Source: a virus (taxonomy: Duplodnaviria; Heunggongvirae; Uroviricota; Caudoviricetes). Taken from it: 39,501 nucleotides of DNA. Of this stretch, positions 936-39,501 are shown piece after piece; the first letter of the stretch is position 1; each line of letters begins with the position of its first letter. Under the pieces are notes generated by a model. That model was not told the DNA's origin. It saw only the letters and a list, made by a program, of their open reading frames with translations, and made no database searches. The stretch lies in IMG/VR virus record IMGVR_UViG_2671180547_000005; one strand, 5' to 3'. The translations under genes and the position numbers were made by a program.

Positions 936-940
936 TAAAG

Positions 941-960: not shown

Positions 961-966
961 ATATCA

Positions 967-1319: not shown

Positions 1320-1331
1320 GGTTTTCAGGAA
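1306..1331. promoter_or_regulatory. gix/hix-like 26-bp recombination site (right copy)
   Basis: TTCCCGTAAACC-GA-GGTTTTCAGGAA: near-palindromic 12-2-12 layout, close to the Mu gix sequence as I recall it, immediately upstream of the invertase gene. Confidence 0.65.
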
Positions 1332-1396
1332 AGCCAGGATTAACTCTGTTTTATTCCTCATGCGACAATTCCGGCTTTTTATAATAAGGAAATCGT

Positions 1397-1969: not shown

Positions 1970-2054
1970 CGCTTTTTTGAATTTCCGCAAAACACATATT
2001 TTTCAGCGGTCGCTATTCTGACTCTGTTTAATTCAGAAACAGGCAGAAAAGACG

Positions 2055-4109
2055 ATGTCAGACTCCAAGTGGAAAATGCTCTCCGCCATGCCCGGAGAGT
2101 TTTCAGTCAAGGTTGCCGGTGGCACGGTGGCATTTATTGAAAGCCCTTTCCGCCCTTCGGGTAATAAAGGGGGGATCACCTTCGCAGACTGCGTGATCCG
2201 CTTCAGCACGAAAGAGCCATTATGGGTAATGCCGGTATCCGGTAATCCCAGTGCAGAAATCACCAGTTCAGGCGTGACTGGCATCATTCCAATCACATCT
2301 GACGTGGCCGGAACGCTCACGCCCTCCGACTGGAATGCACCGGATAACGCCGGGCCTTCCGGTAGCACGAATGGCAGCAGTTCAGAGCCGGAATATTACT
2401 TTGTTGTCATTCTCGCGGGTCAGTCAAATGGCATGGCCTACGGCGAGGGGCTGCCGTTACCGGATTCGTTTGACCGCCCGGACCCACGCATTAAGCAACT
2501 GGCACGCCGCAGTACGGTAACGCCCAACGGTACGTCGTGTACATACAACGACATCATTCCGGCAGACCACTGCCTGCATGATGTTCAGGATATGAGCGGG
2601 ATAAACCACCCGAAAGCTGATCTGGCAAAAGGCCAGTACGGGACTGTCGGTCAGGGGTTGCATATTGCCAAAAAACTGCTTCCCTATATCCCACAGAATG
2701 CCGGGATACTTCTGGTGCCCTGTTGTCGTGGCGGGTCAGCATTCACCACTGGAGCCGACGGCTCATTCAGTGAGGCCAGCGGTGCTTCCGCTGATTCTTC
2801 ACGCTGGGGGGCCGGTAAACCTCTGTATCAGGACCTGGTAAGCCGCACCAAAGTCGCGCTGGCGAAAAACCCGAAAAACAAACTTCTGGCTGTGGTCTGG
2901 ATGCAGGGAGAGGCAGACCTTGCCTCAGGAAGCCAGCAGCATAATAGTTTATTCACGGCCATGGTTCAGCAGTTCAGAACTGACCTGGCTCCGCTTGCTG
3001 CGCAGTGCGTGAGTGGAAATGCCACCACGGTGCCGTGGATTTGCGGTGATACCACGTATTACTGGAAAAACGCTGGCACCGATAAATATGAGGCAGTATA
3101 CGGTGGCTACAAAGGCAAGGAAGCACAGAAAATTTTCTTTGTACCGTTCCTGACGGATGAGAATGGACAGAGCACGCCAACGAATGCTCCGGCGGAAGAC
3201 CCGGATATTGTGGCTGTCGGGTATTACGGTGCAGCATCCCGAACCCAGGGCAGTTTTGTTTCGACACAGCGTGACAGCCATTTCAGCTCATGGGCACGCA
3301 GGGGCGTCATTTCAGACCGTCTGGCCTCAGCTATTATGCTCCATGCAGGGCGCACGGCTGAACTGATGCGTGGGCAGACCGTGACACCACCGGATGAGAA
3401 GCCGTCACCTGATACACCATCAAAACCGTCCACGCCACCCGCAGACACCACGACGATGAGTACGCTATTTGCTTACCGGGCATCTGAGTCTGAAGGACGG
3501 TTGACACCACAGGGTTGGGCTGCCGGAGGTGGCAAGGCTCAAATCGTGGATGATGCCGGAGCCAGCGGGGGTAAGGCAATGAAACTGACCAAGGAAACAG
3601 GAAGAGCCCCCTGGTACCTTGAGCATGATGCTGGTAATGGTGCGGACCTGCTGGGTAAAGGTGGTCTTGTCAGTTGTCGTTTTAAACTCGATGGCGCGCT
3701 TACGGCTAATCAGTACGCACTGGCGCTGTACTGGCCGGTTTCTGCCCTGCCGCAAGGGGTTACTCTGGAAGGAAATGCCGGTCATAACCTGCTGGCATCG
3801 TTCTACGTACAGAGCGATGCCACAGACCTTAACGTGATGTATCACAAAGGAAACACGGCGCAGAACACGAAGCTGGGGTCATTCGGCGCATTTAATAACG
3901 AATGGCATACGCTGGGCTTCCGTTTTGCCGGTAACAACAGTATTGAGGTGACGCCGGTCATTGATGGTAAGGACGGGACACCATTCATGCTGTCGCAGTC
4001 TCCGGTCGGCACGTTTACGGCAGACAAGTTGCGCGTGACCGATATCACTAAAAATGCGACTTACCCGGTACTGATTGACAGTATCGTGGTGGAAGTGAAT
4101 AACGCGTAA
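2055..4109 (+). CDS. NanS-p-like sialate O-acetylesterase (SASA/SGNH domain) with Pro/Thr linker and C-terminal lectin-like domain
   Basis: 684 aa; VVILAGQSNGMAYGEG matches the GQSN motif of the sialate O-acetylesterase family; size and modular layout resemble prophage NanS-p proteins. Confidence 0.6.
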   Translation: MSDSKWKMLSAMPGEFSVKVAGGTVAFIESPFRPSGNKGGITFADCVIRFSTKEPLWVMPVSGNPSAEITSSGVTGIIPITSDVAGTLTPSDWNAPDNAGPSGSTNGSSSEPEYYFVVILAGQSNGMAYGEGLPLPDSFDRPDPRIKQLARRSTVTPNGTSCTYNDIIPADHCLHDVQDMSGINHPKADLAKGQYGTVGQGLHIAKKLLPYIPQNAGILLVPCCRGGSAFTTGADGSFSEASGASADSSRWGAGKPLYQDLVSRTKVALAKNPKNKLLAVVWMQGEADLASGSQQHNSLFTAMVQQFRTDLAPLAAQCVSGNATTVPWICGDTTYYWKNAGTDKYEAVYGGYKGKEAQKIFFVPFLTDENGQSTPTNAPAEDPDIVAVGYYGAASRTQGSFVSTQRDSHFSSWARRGVISDRLASAIMLHAGRTAELMRGQTVTPPDEKPSPDTPSKPSTPPADTTTMSTLFAYRASESEGRLTPQGWAAGGGKAQIVDDAGASGGKAMKLTKETGRAPWYLEHDAGNGADLLGKGGLVSCRFKLDGALTANQYALALYWPVSALPQGVTLEGNAGHNLLASFYVQSDATDLNVMYHKGNTAQNTKLGSFGAFNNEWHTLGFRFAGNNSIEVTPVIDGKDGTPFMLSQSPVGTFTADKLRVTDITKNATYPVLIDSIVVEVNNA

Positions 4110-4110
4110 G

Positions 4111-4146
4111 CAGGATAAAAAAATGCCGCCGGTAAGGGAAAACAAG
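4111..4146 (-). terminator. Intrinsic terminator oriented for leftward transcription
   Basis: 10-bp stem TGCCGCCGGT / ACCGGCGGCA; the 7-nt T-run follows the hairpin only on the minus strand. Confidence 0.5.
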
Positions 4147-4253
4147 AAACCGGCGGCAAAAAGATCGTTATATCCAAAGCAAAAAATGCAGTGCACCTTT
4201 TTACCTAACAGATATTACCGGTGTCAACACCATGTCAATAATTGGGAGGGATA

Positions 4254-4436
4254 ATGACATTTTTACAGCTTATTTTATTGTATTTCTGCACGGCAGTATG
4301 TGCGTTATATCTGGTGAGTGGTGGTTATAAGGCCATCAGAAATTATGTTCGCCGCAAAATTGAGGACGCAGCAGCTGAAAAACTCAGTAAAACAGCGCAG
4401 GTAACTCCGCTCCCAAAAGACCCGACCCAGCCCTGA
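4254..4436 (+). CDS. Small hydrophobic (probably membrane) protein, unknown function
   Basis: ATG at 4254 preceded by GGGAGGG; 60 aa with a hydrophobic N-terminus followed by a charged tail. Confidence 0.45.
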   Translation: MTFLQLILLYFCTAVCALYLVSGGYKAIRNYVRRKIEDAAAEKLSKTAQVTPLPKDPTQP

Positions 4437-4471
4437 TTGCAGGGCTTTATTCCCGCATAAGGAGGATATAC

Positions 4472-4726
4472 ATGCCAGAAATTAAAGGCACCGTCACTGA
4501 AGACCTGGTAAAACAGGCACTGTATTCCGGTGAAGTAAATAAGTTGCTGAAAGCGCAGGTCCGCAAGGATTTTGAGGCACAAATCGACACTTACGTTGAT
4601 GAAGTGCTGGCAAAACTTATTGGGCCAGCAGTTGCGGCCAGTGATGCTGATAATGAGCCGAAAACCGACGCGCAGCCAGAGCAACCAGACCCGGCTCAGC
4701 CCGGAACTGACAGTACCATGATGTAA
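4472..4726 (+). CDS. Small acidic protein, unknown function
   Basis: Strong RBS AAGGAGG 6 nt upstream; 84 aa with an acidic Pro-rich C-terminus. Confidence 0.45.
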   Translation: MPEIKGTVTEDLVKQALYSGEVNKLLKAQVRKDFEAQIDTYVDEVLAKLIGPAVAASDADNEPKTDAQPEQPDPAQPGTDSTMM

Positions 4727-4783
4727 CAATACAAACCGGTGGTGTCCTCTGCCGGTTTGACACTAATGAAAACATCTTTGCCG

Positions 4784-4812
4784 CTATCCAGCCATATGTA
4801 ATCGCTGGATAG
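4784..4812 (+). terminator. Hairpin after the small two-gene cassette
   Basis: Perfect 9-bp inverted repeat CTATCCAGC / GCTGGATAG with an 11-nt loop, followed by a U-rich tract; a second hairpin lies at about 4732..4758. Confidence 0.4.
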
Positions 4813-4893
4813 TATTTCGTATTCAGAAATATAGCTGCTTATGGAGCAGTCAATCCTGCTTCCCCATCCGGGCAGGCAAATGAACCGGTATCA

Positions 4894-5187
4894 TTAGTCC
4901 GATTCACGCTTTTGTAGAATCGTTCCCAGAATGCTATACAGCTCATTAGCCTGTTGCTCCATCATTGAGACGGAGGCTATACGGTGCAAAGTGATTTCAG
5001 GAGGTGGCACACCTCCATCTTCTTGCTGTGGAGGAAAAACATAAGATTTAATAAAAAAGTTGAAGCATATGAACTCTCCCGCACTCGAACTGTATTTGCA
5101 GGCATCTGAATAATCGGAAAAATAATCATTATAGATTTCCGCATTTTCAATCATTTTTCGATTTCTCGTCGTTACATGATTGTCCAT
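4894..5187 (-). CDS. Hypothetical protein in an AT-rich segment (moron candidate)
   Basis: 97 aa; ATG preceded by AAGAGG; region is visibly AT-rich compared with the rest of the phage. Confidence 0.4.
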   Translation of the reverse strand: MDNHVTTRNRKMIENAEIYNDYFSDYSDACKYSSSAGEFICFNFFIKSYVFPPQQEDGGVPPPEITLHRIASVSMMEQQANELYSILGTILQKRESD

Positions 5188-5376
5188 AGCAGCCTCTTAC
5201 GCTGGCAATTAACCAATTGACTTCTATAAATTAGTTGATTTGTTTGCTTTGCGGTATTCAAATGTACAATCATTCAGCACTTATGCGTTACAGCACCGTT
5301 TAAAATTAGTGATCAAACTCATAAATTTTCGCTAATGACATTTCGTGTTATTTGTTGTATCAATTAAATAAATCAA

Positions 5377-5400
5377 ATCGATCGTTTTTGTCGATCGATT
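5377..5400. promoter_or_regulatory. GATC pair in a palindromic context upstream of com-mom
   Basis: GATC at 5380..5383 and 5393..5396 within TCGATCG ... TCGATCGA, about 45 bp upstream of the com start; Mu mom is controlled through GATC methylation. Confidence 0.4.
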
Positions 5401-5443
5401 GAGTGATAAAGATATCAACAACAAAGCAGGAGGTTATGCGGCC

Positions 5444-5644
5444 ATGTATCGAAACATACGGTGCCGACATTGTAACAAGCTACTGGCACGAGCCAGCTTC
5501 AGTTATCTGGAAGTTAAATGTCCGCGCTGTAAAACCCTCAATCAAATCACATCTCAGAGCGCCACAGAGCACCCCACATACACAAGGAAATCCTGTCGTG
5601 GGGAACAGAAAGCAAGTTACATCCCGTATCATCAGCACGCCTGA
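5444..5644 (+). CDS. com: Com-like zinc-finger translational activator of mom
   Basis: 66 aa from the internal ATG with an upstream AGGAGG; CxxC ... CPRC zinc-finger pattern as in Mu Com. Confidence 0.7.
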
Positions 5645-6335
5645 ACTTATTCACTATAACGACAATATCGTCGGTTATGGCTCCCGTGAGTTACGGGTTG
5701 AGACAATAAGTTGCTGGCTGGCCCGGCTGGTCGTCGTCAATAAACATTACAGCCATCGTTTCGTAAATAATTCCTACCTTCATCTGGGCATATTTTCAGA
5801 ACGGGAGCTGGTTGGCGTAATGCAATGGGGTTATGCCCTTAATCCAAACAATGGTGCACGCGTCGTAACTGGCACGCAGAACCGCGAATATATGGAGCTT
5901 AACCGGTTATGGCTGCATGACTGTATGCCGAGAAACTCCGAATCAAGGGCAATCAGTTACGCGCTCAAACTAATCAGACAACTTTATCCGCAGGTGCAGT
6001 GGGTTCAGTCGTTTGCAGATGAGCGTTGTGGCTGTCTTGGTGTCGTGTACCAGGCAAGCAATTTTGATTATGTAGGCAGTCATGAAACAACATTCTATGA
6101 ACTTGATGGCGAGTGGTATCACGAGATTTGCAAGAATGCAATCAAACGAGGAGGACAGCGAGGTGAACATCTGCGGGCTAATATCGACAGAGCCAGTGTT
6201 CATAAATTCCGTCAGTTTCGTTACATCCGGTTTCTGGACAAGAGAGCCAGAAAACGCCTTAACACAAAGCTATTCAAAGTCCAGCCTTACCCAAAACCAC
6301 AAACAGTTAAAACTGGTTTGAAAGAGAGTGAATGA
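5598..6335 (+). CDS. mom: Mom-like DNA modification protein
   Basis: Overlaps the 3' end of com in another frame; GTG at 5598 preceded by AAGGAAA; about 245 aa; last gene before the phage end, as in Mu. Start codon inferred. Confidence 0.55.
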
Positions 6336-6379
6336 ACGCTTAAAAACTCATTCTAAAACTCAAAAGAAAAGCGCCGATT

Positions 6380-6463
6380 TAGTATCAAATAAGTTGCGTA
6401 TCGGCGTTTTTCAGCGGTATCAAATGAAATGCAAATCGGTATCAAAAAAATCGCCGCGCTATA
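6380..6463. repeat. Phage right-end (attR-like) cluster of three closely spaced transposase-site repeats
   Basis: AGTATCAAATAAG (6381), CGGTATCAAATGA (6416), CGGTATCAAAAAAA (6437); inferred terminus about 6456..6463 (...GCGCTATA). Confidence 0.6.
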
Positions 6464-6465
6464 GA

Positions 6466-6548: not shown

Positions 6549-6853
6549 NNNNNNNNNNNNNNNNNNNNNNNNNNNNNNNNNNNNNNNNNNNNNNNNNNNN
6601 NNNNNNNNNNNNNNNNNNNNNNNNNNNNNNNNNNNNNNNNNNNNNNNNNNNNNNNNNNNNNNNNNNNNNNNNNNNNNNNNNNNNNNNNNNNNNNNNNNNN
6701 NNNNNNNNNNNNNNNNNNNNNNNNNNNNNNNNNNNNNNNNNNNNNNNNNNNNNNNNNNNNNNNNNNNNNNNNNNNNNNNNNNNNNNNNNNNNNNNNNNNN
6801 NNNNNNNNNNNNNNNNNNNNNNNNNNNNNNNNNNNNNNNNNNNNNNNNNNNNN
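6549..6853. other. Assembly gap (305 N)
   Basis: Run of n. Confidence 1.
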
Positions 6854-27630: not shown

Positions 27631-28002
27631 TTACTTCGTCTTTCCTGCCGGAACAGCAGTCGTTCCGGCCATATCAGTAAATTCATGCTGTCGCTGTGTC
27701 TCCAGACGGCGGATGCTGGCCTTGTCCACGTTGCAGTTTTTAATCACCGCCAGCAGTTGCAGGTTGTAAGTGACCGATGCACCAAACGTGAACGGCTGCG
27801 GCGCGGGAGGGACCAGGCAGTCAGCCAGCCATTCAGCGGGGATCGGCACCGGCTTCACCGGCACGTATTTCACAGACGGCCCGCCGCACCCGGTCAGCCA
27901 CATCATCAGGCACAGGCACAGCGGCAGCAGGCACCGTTGCCAGTGACCGGCGGACAATGCTCTGCTGTTCCTCGCTGTGCTGCATGTTCTGCTGTTTTTC
28001 AT
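27631..28002 (-). CDS. o-spanin (Rz1-like lipoprotein), overlapping the i-spanin
   Basis: Lipobox LTGC after a hydrophobic stretch; Pro-rich; start is approximate. Confidence 0.55.
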   Translation of the reverse strand: MKNSRTCSTARNSRALSAGHWQRCLLPLCLCLMMWLTGCGGPSVKYVPVKPVPIPAEWLADCLVPPAPQPFTFGASVTYNLQLLAVIKNCNVDKASIRRLETQRQHEFTDMAGTTAVPAGKTK

Positions 28003-28231
28003 TCGTGGCCGCCTTGCTGATTTGTGAAATGAGTTGCAGGGTGCGTTGCTGGTTTGCCAGCACCAGACGGGCTTCGTCCCGTTCACGCACAAGCACATGA
28101 TTATTGTCCTCAAGGCGCTGCGTCTTCTGGTGCATTCCCCATACCACGGCAGCCAGCACGCTCATCACCCCCAGCGCCGCCATACAGCCTCCGGCAATCA
28201 GGGCCGGTAAGGGATTGTTCACCGCAGACAC
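27833..28231 (-). CDS. i-spanin (Rz-like)
   Basis: N-terminal transmembrane segment then a coiled coil; directly downstream of the endolysin; start is approximate. Confidence 0.5.
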   Translation of the reverse strand: MSAVNNPLPALIAGGCMAALGVMSVLAAVVWGMHQKTQRLEDNNHVLVRERDEARLVLANQQRTLQLISQISKAATNEKQQNMQHSEEQQSIVRRSLATVPAAAVPVPDDVADRVRRAVCEIRAGEAGADPR

Positions 28232-28295
28232 AGCACACCCCGCAGCAGCACAACGGCACACAGCAGCGCAATCATGAGCGGTCGCCAGAAGCGGT

Positions 28296-28796
28296 TCAGA
28301 CTTTCGGCAAATCGTAACGACATAACCATTCATCCGCCGAACGGCGGGCCTCAAGACCGGGGAGTTTTACCCCCTTTGAATAAATCCAGCGGATATACTG
28401 CTTACAGGACGCGGGCATCTGCCCGGCATTGATAAGGCGCAGGAGCGTGGAGTTGCGAAAGTTCGTTTCACCGGCCCAGAAAATCCAGGAGGCCAGCGCC
28501 ACCGTCTGACCACGGGTAAGCGGCACCTGAACATGACGATCGATAGCCGCAAAGGCCCATTTCATGTCCTTTTCCAGCAGCTCCAGACACTCTTCATCAG
28601 TTTTTGTCATCCCCGGTTTCACATCCGGGCCGGTATGGCCGTAACAGATGGTGGGGGTGCCGGTGGGATCAATGTACGTGGTGTTTTCTTTCCCTTCCCA
28701 GTAGCCGGTGTAGTGCGTGGCAATGGTGAACGTCCCGGCTCCGGCCAGAACAAGGGCAATCAGCTTTTTACGCAGGGGTGCGGGGAGTTTTGGCAT
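28296..28796 (-). CDS. SAR endolysin (GH24 lysozyme, P21 R-like)
   Basis: 166 aa; hydrophobic N-terminal signal-anchor; motifs TICYGHTG and FRNSTLLRLINAGQ resemble SAR lysozymes. Confidence 0.8.
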   Translation of the reverse strand: MPKLPAPLRKKLIALVLAGAGTFTIATHYTGYWEGKENTTYIDPTGTPTICYGHTGPDVKPGMTKTDEECLELLEKDMKWAFAAIDRHVQVPLTRGQTVALASWIFWAGETNFRNSTLLRLINAGQMPASCKQYIRWIYSKGVKLPGLEARRSADEWLCRYDLPKV

Positions 28797-28867
28797 TGTT
28801 ACGCTGTCTCATGGTGTTCTCTGAGTCAGCGTAACCGTGAGGAAAAGGGGGCAGGATTTGCGGAATA

Positions 28868-29290
28868 TCAGAAAAGCCGTGGCTGCGTGCGTTCCTGATG
28901 CAGGCGACGCTGGTTGCGGATAACGGAGTAAATCTGCGTCTCTGACATCTGGTAGTGGCGGCGCAGGGTTTCAATTTTTTCGCCCTGGCTCCAGCGGGAA
29001 AAAATTTCATTATTGCGCAGTTCGGTGAAAAGGGATTCACCGACCGGGAGATAATAACCACGCCCGCCCATGTACCCGGCCTGTGCGGCTGCAACCTTAC
29101 GGGCAAGCATTCCCGCCTGAGCAGGTTCAATCCCCTGACGGTGCAGTTCAGCACTGATCACATCAACCAGGTCCCGCAGCGTGCCGGGCCAGTTCTTTTT
29201 CAGCTCATCATCAGGAATATCATCCAGACGGTCAATCAGCGCGTGCAGCTGTTCGCTGTCACCAAACATGCTCATCTGTGTTTCAGCCAT
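28868..29290 (-). CDS. mor: Mor/C-family transcriptional activator
   Basis: 140 aa with a C-terminal HTH; positioned upstream of the lysis and late genes. Confidence 0.65.
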   Translation of the reverse strand: MAETQMSMFGDSEQLHALIDRLDDIPDDELKKNWPGTLRDLVDVISAELHRQGIEPAQAGMLARKVAAAQAGYMGGRGYYLPVGESLFTELRNNEIFSRWSQGEKIETLRRHYQMSETQIYSVIRNQRRLHQERTQPRLF

Positions 29291-29360
29291 ACCCGCCTCC
29301 GGTCATCATTACACAGGGCAAGTTTAAAATAAAAATCCCGCGCTGTGGCGGGATTTGGGG

Positions 29361-29873
29361 TTAACGGGGGAATGATTTTTCATACAGCCTGCAAACACGC
29401 TCATAACTCATCACTGCACGTTCCGACATATCCAGGGCTGCCAGCATTTTGCGGCGGTGCCAGCGTTTGAGACGCTCCAGCACATCAGAGGCCAGCGCGG
29501 GTTGTTGCTCCAGCCACTGCCAGTTAGCCACACCTTCGCCGTCGTTCTGCGCGGCCGTCTGCGATTTCACCCAGCGGTTAAGGGCCGTTTCCCCGCCATC
29601 AGAGATAAATCCCTGCCGGTGCATCACTTTCCAGATGGCGCGAATTTTGGCGGTCACCGTACCCGGTTTTAAGGCCCGGTTAACCGGCTTCTGACGCACT
29701 TTAAAACCGCGTTTTTTGAAAACATCCAGCACGCGGGATAACTCACCGGGTGACATATCACGGCAACTGGATTTGCCGGTGGCTGCCAGCAGCGCGGATG
29801 TATAGGTATCATGGTCAAGCTGTAGATCGCGTTTTGCGACATGTATTAAGGTAATCAGGGAAGCGCGATTCAT
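29361..29873 (-). CDS. GemA-like protein (Mu gp16 family)
   Basis: 170 aa immediately upstream of mor. Confidence 0.5.
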   Translation of the reverse strand: MNRASLITLIHVAKRDLQLDHDTYTSALLAATGKSSCRDMSPGELSRVLDVFKKRGFKVRQKPVNRALKPGTVTAKIRAIWKVMHRQGFISDGGETALNRWVKSQTAAQNDGEGVANWQWLEQQPALASDVLERLKRWHRRKMLAALDMSERAVMSYERVCRLYEKSFPR

Positions 29874-29943
29874 TATCGTGGCTCCATAAAAAATGGGCGG
29901 TGTTACCGCACCGCCATGTCAATTAACATAAAAGGAAAAATCT

Positions 29944-30183
29944 ATGTCAGATATAAAAAATGCACTTGATGTTGCCGCATTCACAATGGCTGGAAATCTT
30001 ATGGTAACCCTGTTCGATAAGGGGCTGATTTCCCGTGAGGAGGCAATACATATTATCAATCTCGCTCAAAAAAACTCTACCCCGGAAAATGCAGAAGATA
30101 TCCAGGATGGCTCATATATTAATACCGACTGGCATTTCGACAATCTCCGGGCCTGTATGGGGATTACCGCTGAAAAAGATTAA
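29944..30183 (+). CDS. Hypothetical protein, opposite strand to the early operon (moron)
   Basis: 79 aa; AAGGA RBS; AT-rich; 3' end overlaps the convergent gene by 20 nt. Confidence 0.4.
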   Translation: MSDIKNALDVAAFTMAGNLMVTLFDKGLISREEAIHIINLAQKNSTPENAEDIQDGSYINTDWHFDNLRACMGITAEKD

Positions 30184-30451
30184 AAATTTTTGCATAATGT
30201 TCAGATGTAAGAATTGCTGAACCATCAACACCGAGCCTACGGCGAACGTATTCCTCGCGGGCTATTTTATTATCCAGAGATACAGCATCCTTAATCAGGT
30301 TAATCTCCCGCTCCATTATCAAAAGGGCTTCTCTGGCTGCAAGATTTTCTTTTATCGCATATTCGATAATGTCCCGCATACGTTCAAGCATGCCGATTTT
30401 AGCCAGTTCTTCGTCGATAGATTTAGGCGCAAATTTGATTTCTTTTTCCAT
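30164..30451 (-). CDS. Hypothetical coiled-coil protein in the AT-rich moron
   Basis: Start taken at ATG giving MEKEIKF with an upstream GAGGA; about 95 aa. Confidence 0.45.
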   Translation of the reverse strand: MEKEIKFAPKSIDEELAKIGMLERMRDIIEYAIKENLAAREALLIMEREINLIKDAVSLDNKIAREEYVRRRLGVDGSAILTSEHYAKIFNLFQR

Positions 30452-30452
30452 A

Positions 30453-30596
30453 TTATTCATCCTCACAATTTATACATGCAGTGTCGTCGCCCATATCGCA
30501 GTGGTTACATTTTATCTCACCACAATGTGGGCACTCTTTCAGATACTCCGGGTCCTCATTTCCACAGGTGGGACATTCAACAATTTGCTCATCCAT
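30453..30596 (-). CDS. Small zinc-ribbon protein (four CxxC pairs)
   Basis: Unlisted 47-aa ORF MDEQIVECPTCGNEDPEYLKECPHCGEIKCNHCDMGDDTACINCEDE. Confidence 0.45.
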   Translation of the reverse strand: MDEQIVECPTCGNEDPEYLKECPHCGEIKCNHCDMGDDTACINCEDE

Positions 30597-30921
30597 TATG
30601 TATCCCCTGTAATTCCGGCAAGGCCGAAAGATGGCACCAGTGCGTCACCTGTCCGTCCTCATCTTCAAGGCAGGCTCCGGTTTCTTCATCAATAAAAAAG
30701 CCTTCATACCCCATATGGCCGATGCGCAGTTCCTGTTGGTCACCATACTGAACAATCAGCACGACAGCCTCCATATCAGGCGGAAATGCGTCATCCAGTG
30801 AATGCCAGGGATAACCGCGCAAATCCCCGAAATAAACGCCGGTCAGCGTTCCGCCACAGAGCGGCATTCCGGCGGCACACACAAGAGGTTCATCTGATTC
30901 AACAAATAAGGTCGTTATCAT
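30589..30921 (-). CDS. Hypothetical early protein
   Basis: 110 aa; operon position. Confidence 0.4.
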   Translation of the reverse strand: MITTLFVESDEPLVCAAGMPLCGGTLTGVYFGDLRGYPWHSLDDAFPPDMEAVVLIVQYGDQQELRIGHMGYEGFFIDEETGACLEDEDGQVTHWCHLSALPELQGIHNG

Positions 30922-31469
30922 GGCGTTAACTCCCGTAATACAGCGTCCTCGGCAGTCCGGCGACGGTAATAAACTGCGTGAGCAGAATGTTCAGATATTC
31001 CAAACTTTTCGCCAATTTCCCGGAATGACAGACGGCGTGGGTAATCGGAATCACGCAGCTCACGTATAAGACGTACATCATCATCAGATATGCGCGTGCC
31101 GGGGCGTAACTCTCCGCACTTTGTTAATCCAGCACCAATCATTCCTGCCCGACATCTGACAGAATCTTTATTACGTCCGAGATATTCTCCCATTTGCTGG
31201 CAGGTCATTGTTCTGGCATTTTTTCGAATAAACTTATCTTCATCAGGTGTAAATCTTGGGTGTTTATATTTCAGTAACTCCGGGTATGAACTGCGCAATA
31301 CACCAGTCCGGTTATATACAGCCCAGACAGTTCTTTTTATTCTGGCAGCAATATCCTTAACCGGGGTGGATGAATAAAGCGCAATCAGCAGCGCATCTTC
31401 TTCAGGTGTCCACGGACGGACATGAGCGGGGGCGCGACCTTTTAGTCCCATGGGTTGTAATTTCATCAT
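30918..31469 (-). CDS. Putative DNA-binding regulator with Myb/SANT-like repeats
   Basis: 183 aa; repeated W-x-x-EED and FTPDED motifs and a C-terminal HTH-like segment. Confidence 0.4.
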   Translation of the reverse strand: MMKLQPMGLKGRAPAHVRPWTPEEDALLIALYSSTPVKDIAARIKRTVWAVYNRTGVLRSSYPELLKYKHPRFTPDEDKFIRKNARTMTCQQMGEYLGRNKDSVRCRAGMIGAGLTKCGELRPGTRISDDDVRLIRELRDSDYPRRLSFREIGEKFGISEHSAHAVYYRRRTAEDAVLRELTP

Positions 31470-31472
31470 GCA

Positions 31473-31988
31473 TCACCCCCTGACTCGCTTTTCAGCAGCA
31501 TAAAACTCATCAGACAGTATTTCGGTCATTTTCTGTTTTGCGGGTTTTACGCCGCACTGAAGGTAAATCACATCGTCAACGCAGAACCACTTCACAGGGC
31601 CAAACAGGATTGCCGAGAAATCAATACCCAACCAGAACAACAGCGCATCGGTTCTGGCATACGTGACGGGCGAATATTCACGCCACAGACTGTTCAGTTC
31701 ATCAGAGGCAACACGCAGGGTTTTAGGGATACGTGATGTGCGCGGTGTGCAGCTCCAGCCATTCGACGCAGTCGGTTTTCGCCATAAGTCGCGATGAAAA
31801 GGATATTTGTCCTCCGTAAAACGCAGTCCCTTAAAGTAAAATCCACTGATACCGGATACAAATACCGACCGGCACGCAACATTCAGCACGGCCTCAAGGC
31901 GTTTTGCCTCATCCTTAACTTTCTGGCAGTCCTGCTGGTATTTTTGCCACGCAGCCAGCGCGGAAGGGTTTGATGTTTTAAAGAACAT
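31473..31988 (-). CDS. Hypothetical early protein
   Basis: 171 aa; operon position. Confidence 0.4.
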   Translation of the reverse strand: MFFKTSNPSALAAWQKYQQDCQKVKDEAKRLEAVLNVACRSVFVSGISGFYFKGLRFTEDKYPFHRDLWRKPTASNGWSCTPRTSRIPKTLRVASDELNSLWREYSPVTYARTDALLFWLGIDFSAILFGPVKWFCVDDVIYLQCGVKPAKQKMTEILSDEFYAAEKRVRG

Positions 31989-32521
31989 TACGCCACCTCC
32001 GCAGATATCCCGGCAGGCGCTGCTGTCCGGTCAACAATCAGGTAGCGCAGAACATGTTCAGTGATATTCCAGCCGCTTAAACCGCAGATAATGACGCCCA
32101 GGCGTATGTCGATATACGCCATCACAAACTGGGGCACGCCTTCTTTCATGGCCTGCTCATCAACTTCAGCCACCACATAAACGGTTTCACAGGTCAGAAC
32201 GCCCTGAGCAAATTCCCACGCCATCGACGGAATATCATGCCCCTCAATCCATGGCAGGGATTTTCTGAAGCCGCACCACTGAACATCATCAGCCGCAGAT
32301 TCCTGGCTGCATTTGCGACGAACCGGCTGCACCGGGCGGGGACGCGGAATATCATAAAAACCGTTACATTCCGTCAGCACGCCTGCATCAACCGCATCAC
32401 GCAGAAAATAAACCATGGAGGATGGCGGCATATTCATTTTTTCAGCCAGTACACCGCAGGTCAGGCGGCCATAAATACACAGCCAGTTTTTAACCCCTTC
32501 AAGCACTTTTGCATCAATCAT
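31988..32521 (-). CDS. Hypothetical early protein
   Basis: 177 aa; operon position. Confidence 0.4.
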   Translation of the reverse strand: MIDAKVLEGVKNWLCIYGRLTCGVLAEKMNMPPSSMVYFLRDAVDAGVLTECNGFYDIPRPRPVQPVRRKCSQESAADDVQWCGFRKSLPWIEGHDIPSMAWEFAQGVLTCETVYVVAEVDEQAMKEGVPQFVMAYIDIRLGVIICGLSGWNITEHVLRYLIVDRTAAPAGISAEVA

Positions 32522-32666
32522 GATTTATTTCCCCACCACATTATTAATGACGATATAAACGTATTTCATATTTCTTAACCCTTATTTTCTGTTTTCAGGC
32601 GCAAGCAGTCCCCTGACGCGAGCGCCATAATTAAAATGAAGTGATATTTAATTGATTAATGCGGTG

Positions 32667-33197
32667 TTATTTATTCAGTCCGGCGTCCTGTTCAAAAGGC
32701 TCGACATAAAAACTTTCAGCGCCTTTATTCACCTTGATACCGGCAATGCCTTTCACAGCATCCGGCTCCGCCAGGACGGCTTCCTTGTTCACTTCCTCTT
32801 TCGTGCGGATGAAACGCTCAAGCCCCATACGGCGCAGCATTTCAATCACACCTTCCACATCACGGCTGACGCTGCATGATGGCGTTCCCAGCCGCCATGA
32901 CACCGTTCCGGTGGTCAGATTGGCTGTTTTGGTTTTGCCGCCGTTCGTCAGCTCATCACGGTTGGTTTTGCACCAGTCCTGAATCCCTTTAAAAAGCACT
33001 TTGATTTGCTTTTTAAGATTTTCAATCTGCGGCGTATAACGGGCGGTGATTTCTGCCACTTCGTCATTCATCGCCGTTTCCAGGCGCAGCGCCTCTCGCT
33101 GAATATCTCCCAGGGTGCGGATATCACGGCTGACTTCTTCCCGGGTCTGCGGTGCCGCCTCGGCTGCGGCCTTTAATTTTGTAACGCGTTTAGCCAT
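32667..33197 (-). CDS. gam: Gam-like host-nuclease inhibitor (DNA-end binding)
   Basis: 176 aa; recognisably similar to Mu Gam (RLETAMNDEVAEI, DELTNGGKTKTANLTTG, FIRTKEEVNKEA). Confidence 0.8.
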   Translation of the reverse strand: MAKRVTKLKAAAEAAPQTREEVSRDIRTLGDIQREALRLETAMNDEVAEITARYTPQIENLKKQIKVLFKGIQDWCKTNRDELTNGGKTKTANLTTGTVSWRLGTPSCSVSRDVEGVIEMLRRMGLERFIRTKEEVNKEAVLAEPDAVKGIAGIKVNKGAESFYVEPFEQDAGLNK

Positions 33198-33208
33198 TTT
33201 GTTTTTCC

Positions 33209-33502
33209 TTATTGCAGTGTGCCTGATGCTTTATGCACGCGGTGGCGTTTAATGATGGCATCCGCTCCAAAAGACTGTGCAGATGCCTGAAATTCCGCTG
33301 AGAGAAACTGAATAATTGCAGGACTGTGATACTGGAGAATACTTGCATAAACGTCACAGAGTGACGTCGGCCTGTTATCCGTATCACGTTCTGTTTTCAC
33401 ATCCACTCCAATCTTTTCATGCACTTCAACACAGTCATTGCCTGCCAACTTTTCGTCATGCGAAACATGATTAAATTCAAAAATAACGCGTACTTTGCTC
33501 AT
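33209..33502 (-). CDS. Small early protein, paralogue A
   Basis: Start at the internal Met giving MSKVRVIFEF; N-terminus parallels the adjacent gene. Confidence 0.45.
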   Translation of the reverse strand: MSKVRVIFEFNHVSHDEKLAGNDCVEVHEKIGVDVKTERDTDNRPTSLCDVYASILQYHSPAIIQFLSAEFQASAQSFGADAIIKRHRVHKASGTLQ

Positions 33503-33506
33503 GGAA

Positions 33507-33779
33507 TTACCCCTGTTGATTAAATTCATTACCGTTAATAACCCCGGAAGCCATGCCTCTGTCTTTCATGAATGCACTGGCTTTCATTGCCACAAACTCT
33601 GCGAAGTTTCTGCTTTCTGCCAGCATAACCACCCCAAAAATCATGGCGGGTCCATTATCTTTCTTCTTTATTCCGGTTGAACGTATATCCAGACTTACCC
33701 CTCTGTGCGTGCTGCCATCAGAGTTTTTGCAGATAACATCTTCCTTGTATTCGAAAATAATGCGTACGACTTTACTCAT
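33507..33779 (-). CDS. Small early protein, paralogue B
   Basis: 90 aa beginning MSKVVRIIFEY. Confidence 0.45.
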   Translation of the reverse strand: MSKVVRIIFEYKEDVICKNSDGSTHRGVSLDIRSTGIKKKDNGPAMIFGVVMLAESRNFAEFVAMKASAFMKDRGMASGVINGNEFNQQG

Positions 33780-34057
33780 CCTCTGGTCCTCGTTCTGTTT
33801 GGATAACTGACCCGGCGTCTAACCTCACGGCAGAACCGAATCATGGCATTAAAGGCTTCTTCCTCCGTCACCGCTTCCGGTATCCCCGGAACCAGTAACT
33901 GCTCCTGTTCATCACGTCCATGACGCGCCATAACCTCAATCACATGCCGTACCGTGGCAGGCTTTCCGGCAACTATCGGCAATGCACCTTCCGGCAGGAC
34001 GTAACCAAACTCAATAAGACCACTCGACCACGCCCATGCAATGAGATTTTTTTTCAC
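33776..34057 (-). CDS. Hypothetical early protein
   Basis: 93 aa; operon position. Confidence 0.4.
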   Translation of the reverse strand: MKKNLIAWAWSSGLIEFGYVLPEGALPIVAGKPATVRHVIEVMARHGRDEQEQLLVPGIPEAVTEEEAFNAMIRFCREVRRRVSYPNRTRTRG

Positions 34058-34058
34058 C

Positions 34059-34325
34059 TCACACCTCCCAGTAAACCGTGCAGCCGCTGATGCGGGTGGC
34101 CTTCACACGGCGGCGCAGGCCGTTGGTCTGTATGGTGATTTCAATTTCACCGGTTCCCTGCACGTTGCCTACCGGCGGCGTGGTTTTCAGTGCAAAACGT
34201 TGCGGATAGCGCTTACTGCGTTCCAGTACCGCACCGGCAAGTTCGGTCAGACGGCGCGCGCTGTTCAGGGAGTCGAATAAATTCATTTTGTTACCGCAGG
34301 ATTGCATATTCATATAACACCTCAT
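34059..34325 (-). CDS. Hypothetical early protein
   Basis: 88 aa; operon position. Confidence 0.4.
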   Translation of the reverse strand: MRCYMNMQSCGNKMNLFDSLNSARRLTELAGAVLERSKRYPQRFALKTTPPVGNVQGTGEIEITIQTNGLRRRVKATRISGCTVYWEV

Positions 34326-34553
34326 TTAGCTGACTTGTTTCGCACCAACAGAACGGCATATTCCGCTGTAAACTTCTGTCGCACCTTCGCGATCAAGTCC
34401 GGCAGATATCACCATTCGTGTGCGGTCATTAAATTCAAAAAGTAAATCGCCACATTCTTTATTTTCGGCCAGTGAAATCACCTTCACGTTATCGAAATTA
34501 ACCAGGTAAAAGCGTCCGTAAATATCAGGAATATTAAATACCGCCATAATCAC
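34326..34553 (-). CDS. Hypothetical early protein in the position of Mu kil
   Basis: 75 aa directly downstream of the B-like gene; positional analogy only. Confidence 0.35.
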   Translation of the reverse strand: MIMAVFNIPDIYGRFYLVNFDNVKVISLAENKECGDLLFEFNDRTRMVISAGLDREGATEVYSGICRSVGAKQVS

Positions 34554-35491
34554 ACCTGTGAGAGTAATTCAGGGTTGGTATAAACCTCTTTAAAGGCCGC
34601 ATTAATATGTTTTTCTGTCAGCGCCGCGCCTTCACCGCTGGCGGTGAGCCACGCCTGGTTAAGCGTATGTGTCAGAACGCGTAACGCTCCCGGCTTTTCA
34701 GCGATAGCCTGCATGACGGCCAGCTCGGCCTCACCACTGATCCCCCACGCCATGGCAATGGCCAGCACATCCGCCTTTTTGGCCTTGCGAAGTTGTTTTG
34801 TACGGGCAAGACGGCTGAACAGGCGCGATAAATCATCAAAGGCGCGGCGTCCACCTTTAAACAATCCGCGCGGGTTACCAATAAGCACCATCCCGATCCC
34901 CGTGGCGTCCTGAATTGCCCGGAGTTGCTCCAGACCGTCAATACCAAGATGATCCGCCTCATCCACAATCACCAGTCCACGCGTTCCCATCAGGCGACGG
35001 CGGATGGCGCGGGATAATGCCCCTTTGTTCGCGCGGGTGTAATCAATCCCCAGCGCATCGGCCAGCTCCAGCAGACACTCCGTGACGCTGGAGTGCGCGG
35101 GTGACAGGGTGATCATCCAGGTGTTTGGTTGCTCCTGGCAGTAATTACGGGCAGTGGCCGTTTTACCCACACCCGGTACGCCCACAATAACGTTAATACA
35201 GCCCATCAGGCGAACCGCCTGAAACAGTGCGCGCAGCTCCTGGACTGTCTGAGTTTCCACAAACTGCGGCGGTTCCGGCAGTGCGCTTTGTTTATTCCAG
35301 TTCTCATACCAGGAGCGCAGGGAAGCAGCCACAGCAGCGTTATCGCCTTTATATTTTCCCTTACGGAAAGCCGATAATGTGCCGTCGGAAATTCCCGCCT
35401 CTCTGGCGATGGCATACTGCGTCAGTACGCCGCCATCAATAAGTTCATCAATGGTCTTGATTACATCGTTAATATCGGTCATATTATTCAC
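34550..35491 (-). CDS. MuB-type AAA+ ATPase (transposition target DNA activator)
   Basis: 313 aa; Walker A GVPGVGKT; clear similarity to Mu B. Confidence 0.85.
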   Translation of the reverse strand: MNNMTDINDVIKTIDELIDGGVLTQYAIAREAGISDGTLSAFRKGKYKGDNAAVAASLRSWYENWNKQSALPEPPQFVETQTVQELRALFQAVRLMGCINVIVGVPGVGKTATARNYCQEQPNTWMITLSPAHSSVTECLLELADALGIDYTRANKGALSRAIRRRLMGTRGLVIVDEADHLGIDGLEQLRAIQDATGIGMVLIGNPRGLFKGGRRAFDDLSRLFSRLARTKQLRKAKKADVLAIAMAWGISGEAELAVMQAIAEKPGALRVLTHTLNQAWLTASGEGAALTEKHINAAFKEVYTNPELLSQV

Positions 35492-35564
35492 CTCGCTTGA
35501 GACAGCATTCTCCGAGACTGAAACCTCAAATAACCTGAGTCACCCCTCGGGTTATTTTTTTATT

Positions 35565-37652
35565 TCAGGCCAGCGGATCACTTTCTTTTAATTTCGCTTC
35601 GAGCAGTTGCAATCCCCGCTGGAAATTACGCTCGTATTCTTCATCAGGTTCATCGTCAGCGACCGGTTGCTGAACGGTCACCGTATTACCCACAGGGCGG
35701 TATATGTTTTCCAGCCAGGGCTCCTGCGGCTTGTGCTCCAGCACGTTGACAACCTCATCCTCGGCATCACGGATTTTTTCCTCTGCGCGTTTACGCATGC
35801 CTTTAAGGCGCTGCTGCTGTTTGTAGTATTCCGCGCTGACAGGGAAGGCTTCGCGTTTATTGCCGTCCCATACCGCCTCGCAAATCACGCTGCCATCCGG
35901 GCGGCGCACGGTAATTCGTTCGGCATCATGAATGTCATAGCTGATAAGTACCTTACGGCCATGCTCGTCACGCAGCTCGGGCGCGTAGTAAATATTATTC
36001 AGCCAGCGTATTTCACAGCGTCTTACAGGGCGCTCCACCATCGGCCGGAACATATCCCGCAGTTCAACATCGGACAGCCATTCAATTTCCGTGTCCTCTT
36101 CCGCCAGGCGTTTTTTTCTGAACTCCGCCGGGCTGTAATGTTTACCGTTCGGCTTCATGGGTAATTCATCGTGCGGCCGGTTGTTGTACCACTCAACACC
36201 GTCACGAATGGCATCAATCAGTTCAGACCAGGACGGTAAATCACGCATCGCTGACTGCTGCCGGGCGTTCAGCCGTTTGCCCTGTTGCAGGGCACTGAAT
36301 GCCGAGCGTAAATCGCGGTTGGTTTTACGTAACGTCTCGCGATCTGCTCCTTTCCCGAAATAGGTGCGGTATTTACGGGCTATGCGCATCGGTAATGTGC
36401 GGTTAAGCCGTTCGATAATGCCCCGTCCCTGCGGATTACCGGCAATCCCTGTCGGGTGATTAATCCCCAGTCGTGGCAGTATCCCCACAATCTCCTTATC
36501 CAGGACGTCGGCGGTTTCCCCGGAGCCATTATCCGAGTAATACAGAAACGGTTTGCCATGATGGCGAATACCGTGCTGTATGGCACCGGCTACGGCGAAA
36601 ACATTTTCAGCCAGGTCAAGGCTCCAGCCCACCACAAAGCGCGTGCCACCGTCGATAACAAAGGTCACTTCCGGTGCGAATGGCCGCCCGTGAACCGGGT
36701 GCGCGCATTTCAGCTTCATGCCGTGACCGTCACCAATCCAGACATAATTCACCGGCATTCTGGACCAGTCGCGGCGCGTGAATCCCTCAAGCTGACGGTA
36801 TTCACTGCCAGTTACCCGGCCTTTTTGTTTCACCACTTCCGGCAGTTTCTTCATTGCGCGGCGAATGGTGTCATAAGAGGGCATGATATCGAGCATATAA
36901 GGCTCATCAGCGTGCCGGTGCTGCCATTCAGCAACAAAATCCTCGTAAGCCTCGGTCATTGGTCGGCCGTTTGACTGGCGATACTGCGCCAGAAATTCGG
37001 GCAGCCAGTTAATATCTTCGGCTTTTATTTCCTGGCGTTTACCCGGTGCCAGTAAAAGCAGGCGTTCAGCGGCGTTCTGTGCCTTGTTAAAGGCCGCAAT
37101 CCAGCGTTTCAGCGTGATTTCACTCAACGCGCGGCTGTTTCCCTTTTTGGCGTTCGCCGTCTCAACCATTGCCACAATGCGCTCGTCCAGTTGTGATCGT
37201 GCCAGGCTGTTAACGAGGAACCGGATAGCTTTAGCGCAGCTGAAACCGGGTTGTTGCGTGAATTTCAGCACCTCACTGACGATCGCAATGCGTGCGTCTG
37301 CCACCTGGCGCTGGTTTTCAGTCAGGGCATTGAGGCGTTCGACCATCAGTTGTGGTGATCCGCGATATGCCTCCACCGCATCAACCACGGCAGACGAGCG
37401 TCTGGCCTTTGTCACCACCGGAGCCGGTGATTCATCGGCTTTTTGCGTCATCAGTTGCAGGGCATAACGTTCGCGTAATGCCTGCTGTGTCACTTCAGGT
37501 AAACAGTCAATGCTGTATTCAAAACCTTTAGCGCCTTTCTTGCGGCGTCTGCTGGTTTCGCTGGTTGCATACTTCCTGATTGAATAGCGAACGCCTTGCT
37601 CCGTTCCCGGCATCCCCGGTAATCCAACCAGTTCTTTAACTGAAGCAAACAT
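35565..37652 (-). CDS. Mu-type DDE transposase (MuA-like)
   Basis: 695 aa; follows ner and precedes B as in Mu. Confidence 0.85.
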   Translation of the reverse strand: MFASVKELVGLPGMPGTEQGVRYSIRKYATSETSRRRKKGAKGFEYSIDCLPEVTQQALRERYALQLMTQKADESPAPVVTKARRSSAVVDAVEAYRGSPQLMVERLNALTENQRQVADARIAIVSEVLKFTQQPGFSCAKAIRFLVNSLARSQLDERIVAMVETANAKKGNSRALSEITLKRWIAAFNKAQNAAERLLLLAPGKRQEIKAEDINWLPEFLAQYRQSNGRPMTEAYEDFVAEWQHRHADEPYMLDIMPSYDTIRRAMKKLPEVVKQKGRVTGSEYRQLEGFTRRDWSRMPVNYVWIGDGHGMKLKCAHPVHGRPFAPEVTFVIDGGTRFVVGWSLDLAENVFAVAGAIQHGIRHHGKPFLYYSDNGSGETADVLDKEIVGILPRLGINHPTGIAGNPQGRGIIERLNRTLPMRIARKYRTYFGKGADRETLRKTNRDLRSAFSALQQGKRLNARQQSAMRDLPSWSELIDAIRDGVEWYNNRPHDELPMKPNGKHYSPAEFRKKRLAEEDTEIEWLSDVELRDMFRPMVERPVRRCEIRWLNNIYYAPELRDEHGRKVLISYDIHDAERITVRRPDGSVICEAVWDGNKREAFPVSAEYYKQQQRLKGMRKRAEEKIRDAEDEVVNVLEHKPQEPWLENIYRPVGNTVTVQQPVADDEPDEEYERNFQRGLQLLEAKLKESDPLA

Positions 37653-37654
37653 AA

Positions 37655-37885
37655 TTACGCGACCTTACGAATGTAGCGGCTGGGCCAAATCTCCTCGGGC
37701 GGCACCCCCAGGCATTCCGCGATAATCCCCTCATACTTGGGAACATGGCGGTATACCGCGTTGTACAGATTGTTCTGACCCACGCCAGCTTTACGGGCCA
37801 GCGCCCTCATGCTTCCTTCTCTGGCTCTGACTTCCCCCAAAATTCTTTGAGGATGCCAATCAGGCTTAACTTCATTTCTCGCCAT
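37655..37885 (-). CDS. ner: Ner-like DNA-binding regulator
   Basis: 76 aa; DWH ... IIAECLGVPPEEIWPSRY resembles Mu Ner. Confidence 0.8.
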   Translation of the reverse strand: MARNEVKPDWHPQRILGEVRAREGSMRALARKAGVGQNNLYNAVYRHVPKYEGIIAECLGVPPEEIWPSRYIRKVA

Positions 37886-37914
37886 GATTCATCTATCCTA
37901 AAAAGTTACGAAAT

Positions 37915-37938
37915 TTGATAACTAAACTTAGTTATCAA
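37915..37938. promoter_or_regulatory. Perfect 24-bp palindrome in the ner / repressor divergent region (operator candidate)
   Basis: TTGATAACTAA-AC-TTAGTTATCAA; further TTGATA-type half-sites and a 9-bp inverted pair with GATC (TTGATCCAC at 37953, GTGGATCAA at 38008). Confidence 0.55.
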
Positions 37939-38070
37939 GTTTGATATAAGTATTGATCCACTTCTGCTTCATGTAAAGCAAAAAAAACATCTTTCTTTTG
38001 TCTATTGTGGATCAATGGTTGCTGACAACACTAAAAGTTAATAATTTCAAATTGATAGGAAGAAAAGAAA

Positions 38071-38862: not shown

Positions 38863-39173
38863 TGTCGCCAGTCGATACCTTCCAGCAGCATCGCCAGCTG
38901 CGCCTGTGTAAGGAACACTTTGCCATCACGGGCTGACGGCCAGGCGAAGCGCCCACGCTCCAGCCGTTTGGTCAGGAGGCACAGTCCGTCACTGGTGGAC
39001 CACAGCAGTTTAACCTGACTGCCGCTGCGGCCCCGGAAAATGAAAACATGGCCGGACATGGGATCGTCTTTCAGCGCCGTCTGTACTTTCGCAGCCAGGC
39101 CGTTGAAGCCATTTCTCATATCGGTGATACCGGCAACCAGCCAAATTTTGATCCCGGAAGGTAACGGGATCAT
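38853..39173 (-). CDS. tnpB: IS66-family TnpB (orf2), 3' end interrupted at the phage junction
   Basis: 107 aa with the characteristic IWLVAGITDMR ... LLEGIDWR; the stop codon coincides with the first bases of the phage end. Confidence 0.75.
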
Positions 39174-39400
39174 CGCTTCAGTTCCTGTATCAGCAGAGTC
39201 AGGAGCTTTTCGCTGACATTGCCATTGAAGCGGAGCGTCCCGTGCCGGAACGTTACCTCACAGCTGATACTGAGGGTTTTCGGGTCCTCTGCGAGCGATT
39301 CTGGCTGTTCGGCAGCTGCATCGAGAGTCACAGGAAGTAGCTGGGGGCTCTCTGAAGAAGGTAATAGCTGAGGTGTACTGGCAATAGCGGACACTACCAT
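39170..39400 (-). CDS. Probable IS66-family orf1 (TnpA) C-terminal part
   Basis: Stop overlaps the tnpB start in an ATGA arrangement; frame stays open to the window edge. Confidence 0.4.
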   Translation of the reverse strand: MVVSAIASTPQLLPSSESPQLLPVTLDAAAEQPESLAEDPKTLSISCEVTFRHGTLRFNGNVSEKLLTLLIQELKR

Positions 39401-39411
39401 TTGTTCTTTTT

Positions 39412-39501
39412 TTAAGCAGCCATCTGATGATATTTTTCCCTGAAGGCTGCCGGGGAGATATTCCCCAGACGAGAGTGACGACGCTGACGATTGTAGAAAA
39501 T
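39412..39501 (-). CDS. IS3-family transposase (orfB), 3' end only
   Basis: Minus frame reads IFYNRQRRHSRLGNISPAAFREKYHQMAA-stop, the conserved C-terminal signature of IS3-family transposases. Confidence 0.55.
   Translation of the reverse strand: MFYNRQRRHSRLGNISPAAFREKYHQMAA

Follow-up and report, generated by a model that had tools for sequence, protein, structure and literature searches.

Orthologues of Mu gp11 and gp12, and a three-repeat Myb/GcrA-like helix-turn-helix protein, in the early operon of an Escherichia coli Mu-like prophage

The DNA considered here is a stretch of 39,501 nucleotides (nt), referred to below as the window, from IMG/VR virus record IMGVR_UViG_2671180547_000005 (Caudoviricetes), and within it a block of three consecutive genes at positions 30918-32521. 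Positions 28000-38000 of the window are 100% identical to a segment of the chromosome of Escherichia coli strain 600029 on which a Mu-type transposase, an AAA ATPase (B), Gam, gp16/GemA, Mor and lysozyme are annotated; the window represents a Mu-like prophage of E. coli, one carried by ~250 E. coli genomes. Its early operon runs along the minus strand in the order A, B, five small open reading frames (ORFs), gam, the three focal ORFs, four small ORFs, gemA and mor, and the block belongs to the semi-essential early region. A first-pass annotation had reported three consecutive early genes of 171-183 amino acids (aa) lying between B and mor, and so they do:

31988-32521, minus strand: gp11 orthologue, assigned by identity to Mu gp11, Pfam and PHROG; 177 aa, acidic, isoelectric point (pI) 4.9, charge -6
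31473-31988, minus strand: gp12 orthologue, assigned by identity to Mu gp12 and phrog_2314; 171 aa, basic, pI 9.3, charge +8
30918-31469, minus strand: ORF-c (WP_000977059.1); 183 aa, pI 9.9, net charge +12, three tandem Myb/GcrA-like helix-turn-helix (HTH) repeats

The genes are closely packed—gp11 and gp12 overlap at TAATG, a gap of 3 nt follows, and ORF-c overlaps the next gene, orf110, at ATGA. In comparison with a related prophage, their ratios of non-synonymous to synonymous substitution (dN/dS) are 0.08 for gp11, 0.17 for gp12 and 0.26 for ORF-c. Because these values signify purifying selection, we regard all three as real, constrained genes rather than chance ORFs. The functions of the semi-essential early region in Mu are largely unknown (PMC3820752, PMC4553209).

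By sequence, the first two genes are plain orthologues of Mu genes. The 177-aa protein is 68% identical to Mu gp11 (Mup11, formerly E10-E12) over its full length of 177 aa, and it matches phrog_1949 at 4e-105. Residues 90-167 match the whole of the Pfam profile Gp11_C (PF25754) with a score of 139.2 bits (cut-off 27; 5.7e-41), and all 20 of the gp11 homologues aligned match the profile as well. The N-terminal ~60 aa are very conserved, a linker at ~61-80 is variable, and the Gp11_C domain completes the layout. Mu gp11 is collinear (176 aa vs 177), its position between gam and gp12 is kept, and the one-base overlap of gp11 and gp12 in Mu is identical to that in the window; structurally, we find no difference between the two. 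The 171-aa protein is 55% identical over 169 aa to Mu gp12 (Mup12, formerly E13; PF26885/phrog_2314), occupies the equivalent position, and matches phrog_2314 through residues 1-170 at 1.2e-84. PF26885 is a family newer than the copy of Pfam with which the window proteins were scanned, and a precomputed match to it is present in all 46 database homologues of the 171-aa protein, including ones 94% identical to that protein.

Identity to Mu falls from 68% for gp11 through 57% for Gam, 55% for gp12, 48% for B and 46% for GemA, to 28% for Mor and 23% for A. Among early proteins of more than 100 aa, then, gp11 is the best conserved relative to Mu, and the picture of the block as poorly conserved has to be given up for gp11 and gp12. 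Their high conservation relative to Mu argues for an important role for both, and they may plausibly be partners, since the pair is conserved and coupled in translation, and the two charges are opposite (-6 and +8). Searches of PDB sequences with gp11 and gp12, as single sequences and as profiles, returned nothing significant. Faint matches to HTH_20 (E 0.017) occur in three of the 20 gp11 homologues, and a winged helix at the N-terminus of gp11 is not claimed.

ORF-c bears the RefSeq name 'SANT/Myb-like DNA-binding domain-containing protein', and comprises an arm followed by three repeats:

31422-31469, minus strand: N-terminal arm, aa 1-16; predicted local distance difference test score (pLDDT) <50 at residues 1-15
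31290-31421, minus strand: repeat 1, aa 17-60; helices 22-31, 37-43 and 48-59, from model and alignment
31134-31262, minus strand: repeat 2, aa 70-112; helices 75-84, 90-97 and 101-110, from model and alignment
30921-31100, minus strand: repeat 3, aa 124-183; helices 129-140, 149-156 and 160-169, and an extra helix 173-181; an HTH of AsnC type, like region 4 of sigma-70

The repeated W-x-x-EED/FTPDED motifs and the HTH-like C-terminus that had drawn attention to this protein in the first place are there: WTPEED at 20-25 in repeat 1, FTPDED at 73-78 in repeat 2, and a degenerate ISDDDV at 127-132 in the third. The AlphaFold2 model, made with 19 homologues, has a pLDDT of 84 and consists of the disordered arm, three three-helix bundles (22-59, 75-110 and 129-169) and a terminal helix. 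Although modelled as disordered, the arm is conserved; its motif, PMGxxGxxPxH, persists even in relatives from P2-like prophages that are 38-45% identical, and in the alignment L4, G11 and H16 never vary and P6 hardly does. In their strongly basic character, repeats 1 and 2 resemble DNA-binding Myb repeats. A profile of the 19 homologues aligns with R2R3 of c-Myb at E 3.5e-6, in register through two repeats (residues 19-109), so that the tandem, ~50-aa, three-helix HTH units of R2R3 have their counterparts in ORF-c. The Pfam family Myb_DNA-binding (PF00249) is matched at E <0.01 by 16 of the 19 homologues (best 6.3e-9), HTH_AsnC by 15 and Sigma70_r4 by 14. Profile and model together support the description of ORF-c as a Myb/SANT-like protein with an additional C-terminal HTH.

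The likeness to eukaryotic Myb R2R3 proteins (c-Myb, B-Myb, WER) has its bounds. Of the Myb tryptophan triad, ORF-c keeps just the first, W20, which alone is invariant; repeat 2 has F73 at this position (W in the Salmonella clade), and at the second and third Trp positions the family has other hydrophobic residues. The third repeat is a different type of HTH, and ORF-c is a phage and bacterial protein of 183 aa with no further domains. Self-similarity among the repeats is marginal by pairwise alignment (p ~0.014 and ~0.02), and not significant between repeats 1 and 3; it is structure and profiles that support the repeats, instead. The best fold match is to the DNA-binding domain of GcrA. A Foldseek search with the whole model gave weak results, which is to be expected because three small domains have an arbitrary relative orientation.

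ORF-c is not a member of the GcrA family (PF07750), which is characterized by an N-terminal DNA-binding domain, a C-terminal domain that interacts with sigma-70, and binding dependent on N6-methyladenine. GcrA itself, the cell-cycle regulator of Caulobacter, has a single DNA-binding domain and a C-terminal sigma-70-binding domain; the latter is absent from ORF-c, and none of the 19 close homologues matches Pfam GcrA. Some homologues in the databases carry the name 'AsnC family protein', which is a misnomer. We reject membership of the AsnC/Lrp family: ORF-c has no RAM domain, its model is all-helical, its HTH_AsnC-type match is sub-threshold (residues 130-164; 18.8 vs 27 bits), and AsnC_trans_reg is matched by none of the 19 homologues.

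The repeat unit of ORF-c belongs to a very large prokaryotic superfamily. An exhaustive profile search with it recovered 11,538 cluster representatives, many of which have 3-10 copies in tandem, and some of which are fusions with helicase domains. The prokaryotic SANT/Myb-like multi-repeat proteins in this assemblage share the unit with ORF-c, but they are arrays of near-identical copies in proteins of 300-1500 aa, whereas the three repeats of ORF-c are differentiated and its context, a phage early operon, is fixed. One such protein, of metagenomic origin (P0077, 807 aa), joins an N-terminal ResIII/Helicase_C helicase to nine near-identical Myb-like repeats.

Within Mu itself ORF-c has a relative. 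When the profile of the ORF-c family was compared with 16 proteins of the Mu early region, from ner to mor, gp9 (Mup09, formerly E8) was the sole match (33 bits, E 3.5e-11); directly compared, the two are 27% identical (E 2e-7). They share phrog_323 ('transcriptional regulator, D5-like'), which ORF-c matches at 5.3e-53, and both are encoded in the early operon. Mu gp9 has 99 aa and two repeats, the first corresponding by profile to ORF-c repeat 2 and the second to repeat 3, and its gene lies upstream of gam; the 183-aa ORF-c has in addition the N-terminal arm and a Myb-like repeat, and lies downstream of gp12. At the gp9 position in the window there is no gp9 homologue. Judged from these alignments, ORF-c is a three-repeat relative of the two-repeat gp9/E8 protein.

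All three genes thus have recognizable families, contrary to the first-pass annotation: PF25754 and phrog_1949 for gp11, phrog_2314 for gp12, and phrog_323 and the RefSeq SANT/Myb-like name for ORF-c. Nor is the architecture of ORF-c, described there as unusual for a Mu-like early protein, so unusual beside gp9. Assignment to known Mu early proteins, the finding that was to tell against the block's novelty, was reached for two of the three genes, gp11 and gp12, and not for ORF-c. For the most part the block is ordinary: besides two Mu early families that already have names it holds an HTH protein that was already catalogued, and no member of it falls outside the kinds already known.

What distinguishes ORF-c is the way it varies. 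Where prophages share gp11, gp12, Gam and B at 91-99% identity, their ORF-c proteins are 71-72% identical; the O157-type allele is 72% identical to that of the window. Its synonymous divergence (dS) is 0.67, against 0.18-0.25 for its neighbours, and because it exceeds theirs we take the difference as a sign that old alleles have been exchanged, not that evolution has lately been fast. Substitutions are distributed unevenly among the helices, too. Overall dN/dS is 0.26, but by helix it is 0.05 for the first of each repeat, 0.09 for the second, and 0.69 for the third, the predicted recognition helix; column entropy peaks in the third helix in all three repeats. This is the variation expected if alleles keep the fold and differ in what they recognize, and it falls short of proof that specificity has changed.

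Among 67 IMG/VR loci that encode ORF-c relatives, 41 are Mu-like with upstream extension, and in each of these 41 informative loci the order gp11-gp12-ORF-c is kept. Orf110 follows ORF-c in 29 of them; it is missing from the other 12, and from all P2-like loci. Set against Mu, the order in the window is gam-gp11-gp12-[ORF-c-orf110]-gp13-gp14-gemA-mor, and ORF-c and orf110 form a two-gene accessory insertion between gp12 and gp13. Relatives of ORF-c with 38-46% identity are encoded by Citrobacter phage Shae_phiSM and, in their early operons, by P2-like prophages, which argues that ORF-c is a mobile accessory early gene rather than one specific to Mu.

Our preferred reading, to which we give a probability of about 0.6, is that ORF-c is an allele-specific, DNA-binding early regulator, set in an accessory insertion beside the gp11-gp12 pair. 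The block would be transcribed from the early promoter together with A, B and gam, and translated by coupling. In ORF-c, the third helix of each repeat would enter a major groove, and the protein, as a monomer, would use its three recognition helices to read a DNA site that is extended and asymmetric. Since the third helices are where the alleles differ, the variants carried by different prophages would recognize different sites. Early in lytic growth, ORF-c might then act as a sequence-specific regulator of, or roadblock to, transcription or some other DNA transaction, on a target that could be phage, host or competitor. From the features described above we infer that it binds DNA, how it recognizes its site and that it is regulatory; for the block as a whole, 'regulator' and 'host takeover', the terms in which it was first described, should be read as putative.

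Several points weigh against this reading. ORF-c itself scores below the Pfam gathering thresholds for both Myb families (19.7 vs 24.4 bits for PF00249, and 16.5 vs 22.9 for PF13921). SANT-type domains can bind proteins instead of DNA. A search of the early region for binding sites or repeats found short repeats at chance level only, and no candidate. The variability of the third helices could stem from relaxed constraint rather than changed specificity, and in the literature we found no paper on the function of ORF-c, gp9, gp11 or gp12.

An alternative, which we consider unlikely, is that ORF-c reads sites marked with N6-methyladenine, in the manner of GcrA, or that it partners or regulates a Dam-type methylase, and in this way ties early gene expression or replication to methylation. 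The GcrA fold match favours this, as does the fact that larger repeat proteins of the superfamily match Pfam GcrA. So, too, does the setting in P2-like prophages, where the ORF-c relative always has a D12-class adenine methylase (Dam) on one side and gpA, a replication gene, on the other. Wherever a P2-like locus extends far enough (L054-L063, L066-L074), and in L006-L009 as well, the methylase gene is 0-1 genes upstream and often abutting; gpA is downstream in the same loci except L006, a short contig, and in some the ORF-c relative overlaps its start. These P2-like loci belong to related prophages, however, and the constant order may be inherited synteny; in the Mu-like loci no methylase adjoins ORF-c, and the close homologues, as noted, do not match Pfam GcrA.

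Matches in mycobacteriophages add nothing to the case for methylation. Gene 109 of Mycobacterium phage Bombitas (L079, 2004-3431) encodes a Myb-like module of two repeats, with 35% identity to ORF-c 12-118, located within a C5-cytosine methylase ORF that seems to be divided between genes 109 and 110; for the corresponding region of sister phages the annotation is HNH endonuclease. Such an arrangement suggests an insertion of homing-endonuclease type with a DNA-binding module of the ORF-c type, and since the repeats lie inside the split methylase gene, probably as such an insertion, we reject the methylase link that these matches might seem to offer.

Equally unlikely, in our view, is that ORF-c is an accessory to replication or transposition that binds phage or host DNA and stimulates replication. 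The semi-essential region is reported to harbour genetically defined functions—arm, cim and sot—to which no genes have been assigned (PMC4553209), and ORF-c might, for example, be arm. It is always found in an operon with replication machinery, with A and B in Mu-like phages and upstream of gpA in P2-like ones. Mu replicates by transposition and P2 by rolling circle, however, and mechanisms so unrelated are unlikely to share a cofactor; the three-repeat protein is absent from Mu itself, and a replication site that is conserved is at odds with recognition helices that vary.

A greater stretch is the idea that ORF-c is a host-takeover or anti-defence silencer that binds specific sites in genes of the host or of rival prophages and stops their transcription, with recognition helices caught up in an arms race. 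Phage CasPR proteins silence cas genes, and are a precedent for DNA-binding anti-defence repressors (bioRxiv 10.64898/2026.02.23.707548). Diversified recognition helices on a strongly conserved scaffold would suit such a protein, as would the exchange of alleles between otherwise near-identical prophages, and the presence of an accessory, non-universal gene in two unrelated groups of temperate phages. But ORF-c has no similarity to the domains of CasPR (CapR/AP2), no target is identified, and dN/dS in the third helices, at 0.69, is still below 1. A PADLOC scan of gp11, gp12, ORF-c and orf110 gave zero matches; with this result, and with CasPR serving as an analogy only, its domains being different, assignment of the block to defence or anti-defence is rejected.

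That the repeats are, instead, SANT-like modules for protein interaction, with orf110, gp11 or a host protein for example, is very improbable: the charges (-17 for orf110 and -6 for gp11, against +12) and the translational coupling of ORF-c to orf110 speak for it, but orf110 is so often missing beside ORF-c, and repeats 1 and 2 are strongly basic and align by profile with a DNA-binding protein, c-Myb R2R3.

If ORF-c is, as we prefer, an allele-specific DNA-binding regulator, its conserved scaffold and variable recognition helices provide a handle on whether temperate phages target specific host DNA. A bolder version of this can be framed, and we hold it to be a long shot: that the ORF-c family moves between Mu-like and P2-like phages, reads long, allele-specific and perhaps methylation-marked sites by three differentiated repeats whose recognition helices diversify rapidly, and reprogrammes transcription of the host or of rival prophages early in lytic growth. 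The idea of methylation marks comes from the GcrA-like fold and from the Dam gene that constantly neighbours the relatives in P2-like prophages. Were it true, bacterial viruses would have in this family a counterpart of the R2R3-Myb factors of eukaryotes, and one whose role in phage-host conflict would be new.

Around the block, the early operon contains the following genes:

35565-37652, minus strand: transposase A
34550-35491, minus strand: B
32667-33197, minus strand: gam, host-nuclease inhibitor, upstream neighbour of gp11; Pfam Phage_Mu_Gam, 5.5e-42
30589-30921, minus strand: orf110, 110 aa, pI 4.05, charge -17; phrog_6925 (unknown function), 2e-51, and a sub-threshold match to DUF551
30453-30596, minus strand: gp13 homologue, 47 aa, Cys-rich and zinc-finger-like, downstream edge of the insertion; 88% identity over 41 aa
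30164-30466, minus strand: gp14 homologue, 100 aa; 49% identity over 94 aa, phrog_6075
29361-29873, minus strand: gemA
28868-29290, minus strand: mor

Orf110 might mimic DNA or serve ORF-c as a partner, a suggestion weakened by its absence from 12 of the 41 Mu-like loci. The gp13 homologue, which has no annotation from the Prokaryotic Genome Annotation Pipeline (PGAP) in the identical reference prophage, has the cysteine pattern CPTCG...CPHCG...CNHC...CINC, and is a probable zinc-ribbon mini-protein. The 145-nt spacer between gam and gp11 (32522-32666) is a polymorphic slot in which spacing varies between loci. Some related prophages, unlike the window and Mu, have an extra gene here; in L003 and L004 it encodes a protein of ~180-190 aa (DUF5420 family or hypothetical). 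In identity to Mu the prophage is a mosaic, with 55-88% for the run gam-gp11-gp12-gp13 set against the low values for A (23%) and Mor (28%); the semi-essential segment is shared with Mu far more closely than are the transposition and regulatory modules. Promoter-like and terminator-like sites in the early region are no more numerous than shuffled sequence leads one to expect, and an Rfam scan of the whole window gave zero matches.

Elsewhere in the window, positions 1-6464 represent the right end of a Mu-like prophage, with a tail-fibre assembly gene, a gin-type recombinase, com and mom, in the orientation opposite to the rest. A run of 305 N follows at 6549-6853, and across this junction collinearity is seen in none of 5,426 complete E. 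coli genomes; the break is probably technical, a gap in the scaffold or a join of contigs, and not biological. An inverted repeat of 79 nt (95% complementary; 1-79 and 1241-1319) encloses a segment of ~1.2 kb adjoining a recombinase gene (1397-1969), and looks like an invertible tail-fibre switch of the Mu G-segment type. Between the invertase and com/mom, at 2055-4109 on the plus strand, lies a large cargo gene of the prophage right end, for a DUF6645 protein of 684 aa. Beyond the left end of the prophage, at 38900-39501, is an IS66-family TnpB-like product; the 100%-identical reference prophage is flanked by a disrupted sgrR gene, instead, and because the flanks differ in this way the copy in the window occupies a different insertion site.

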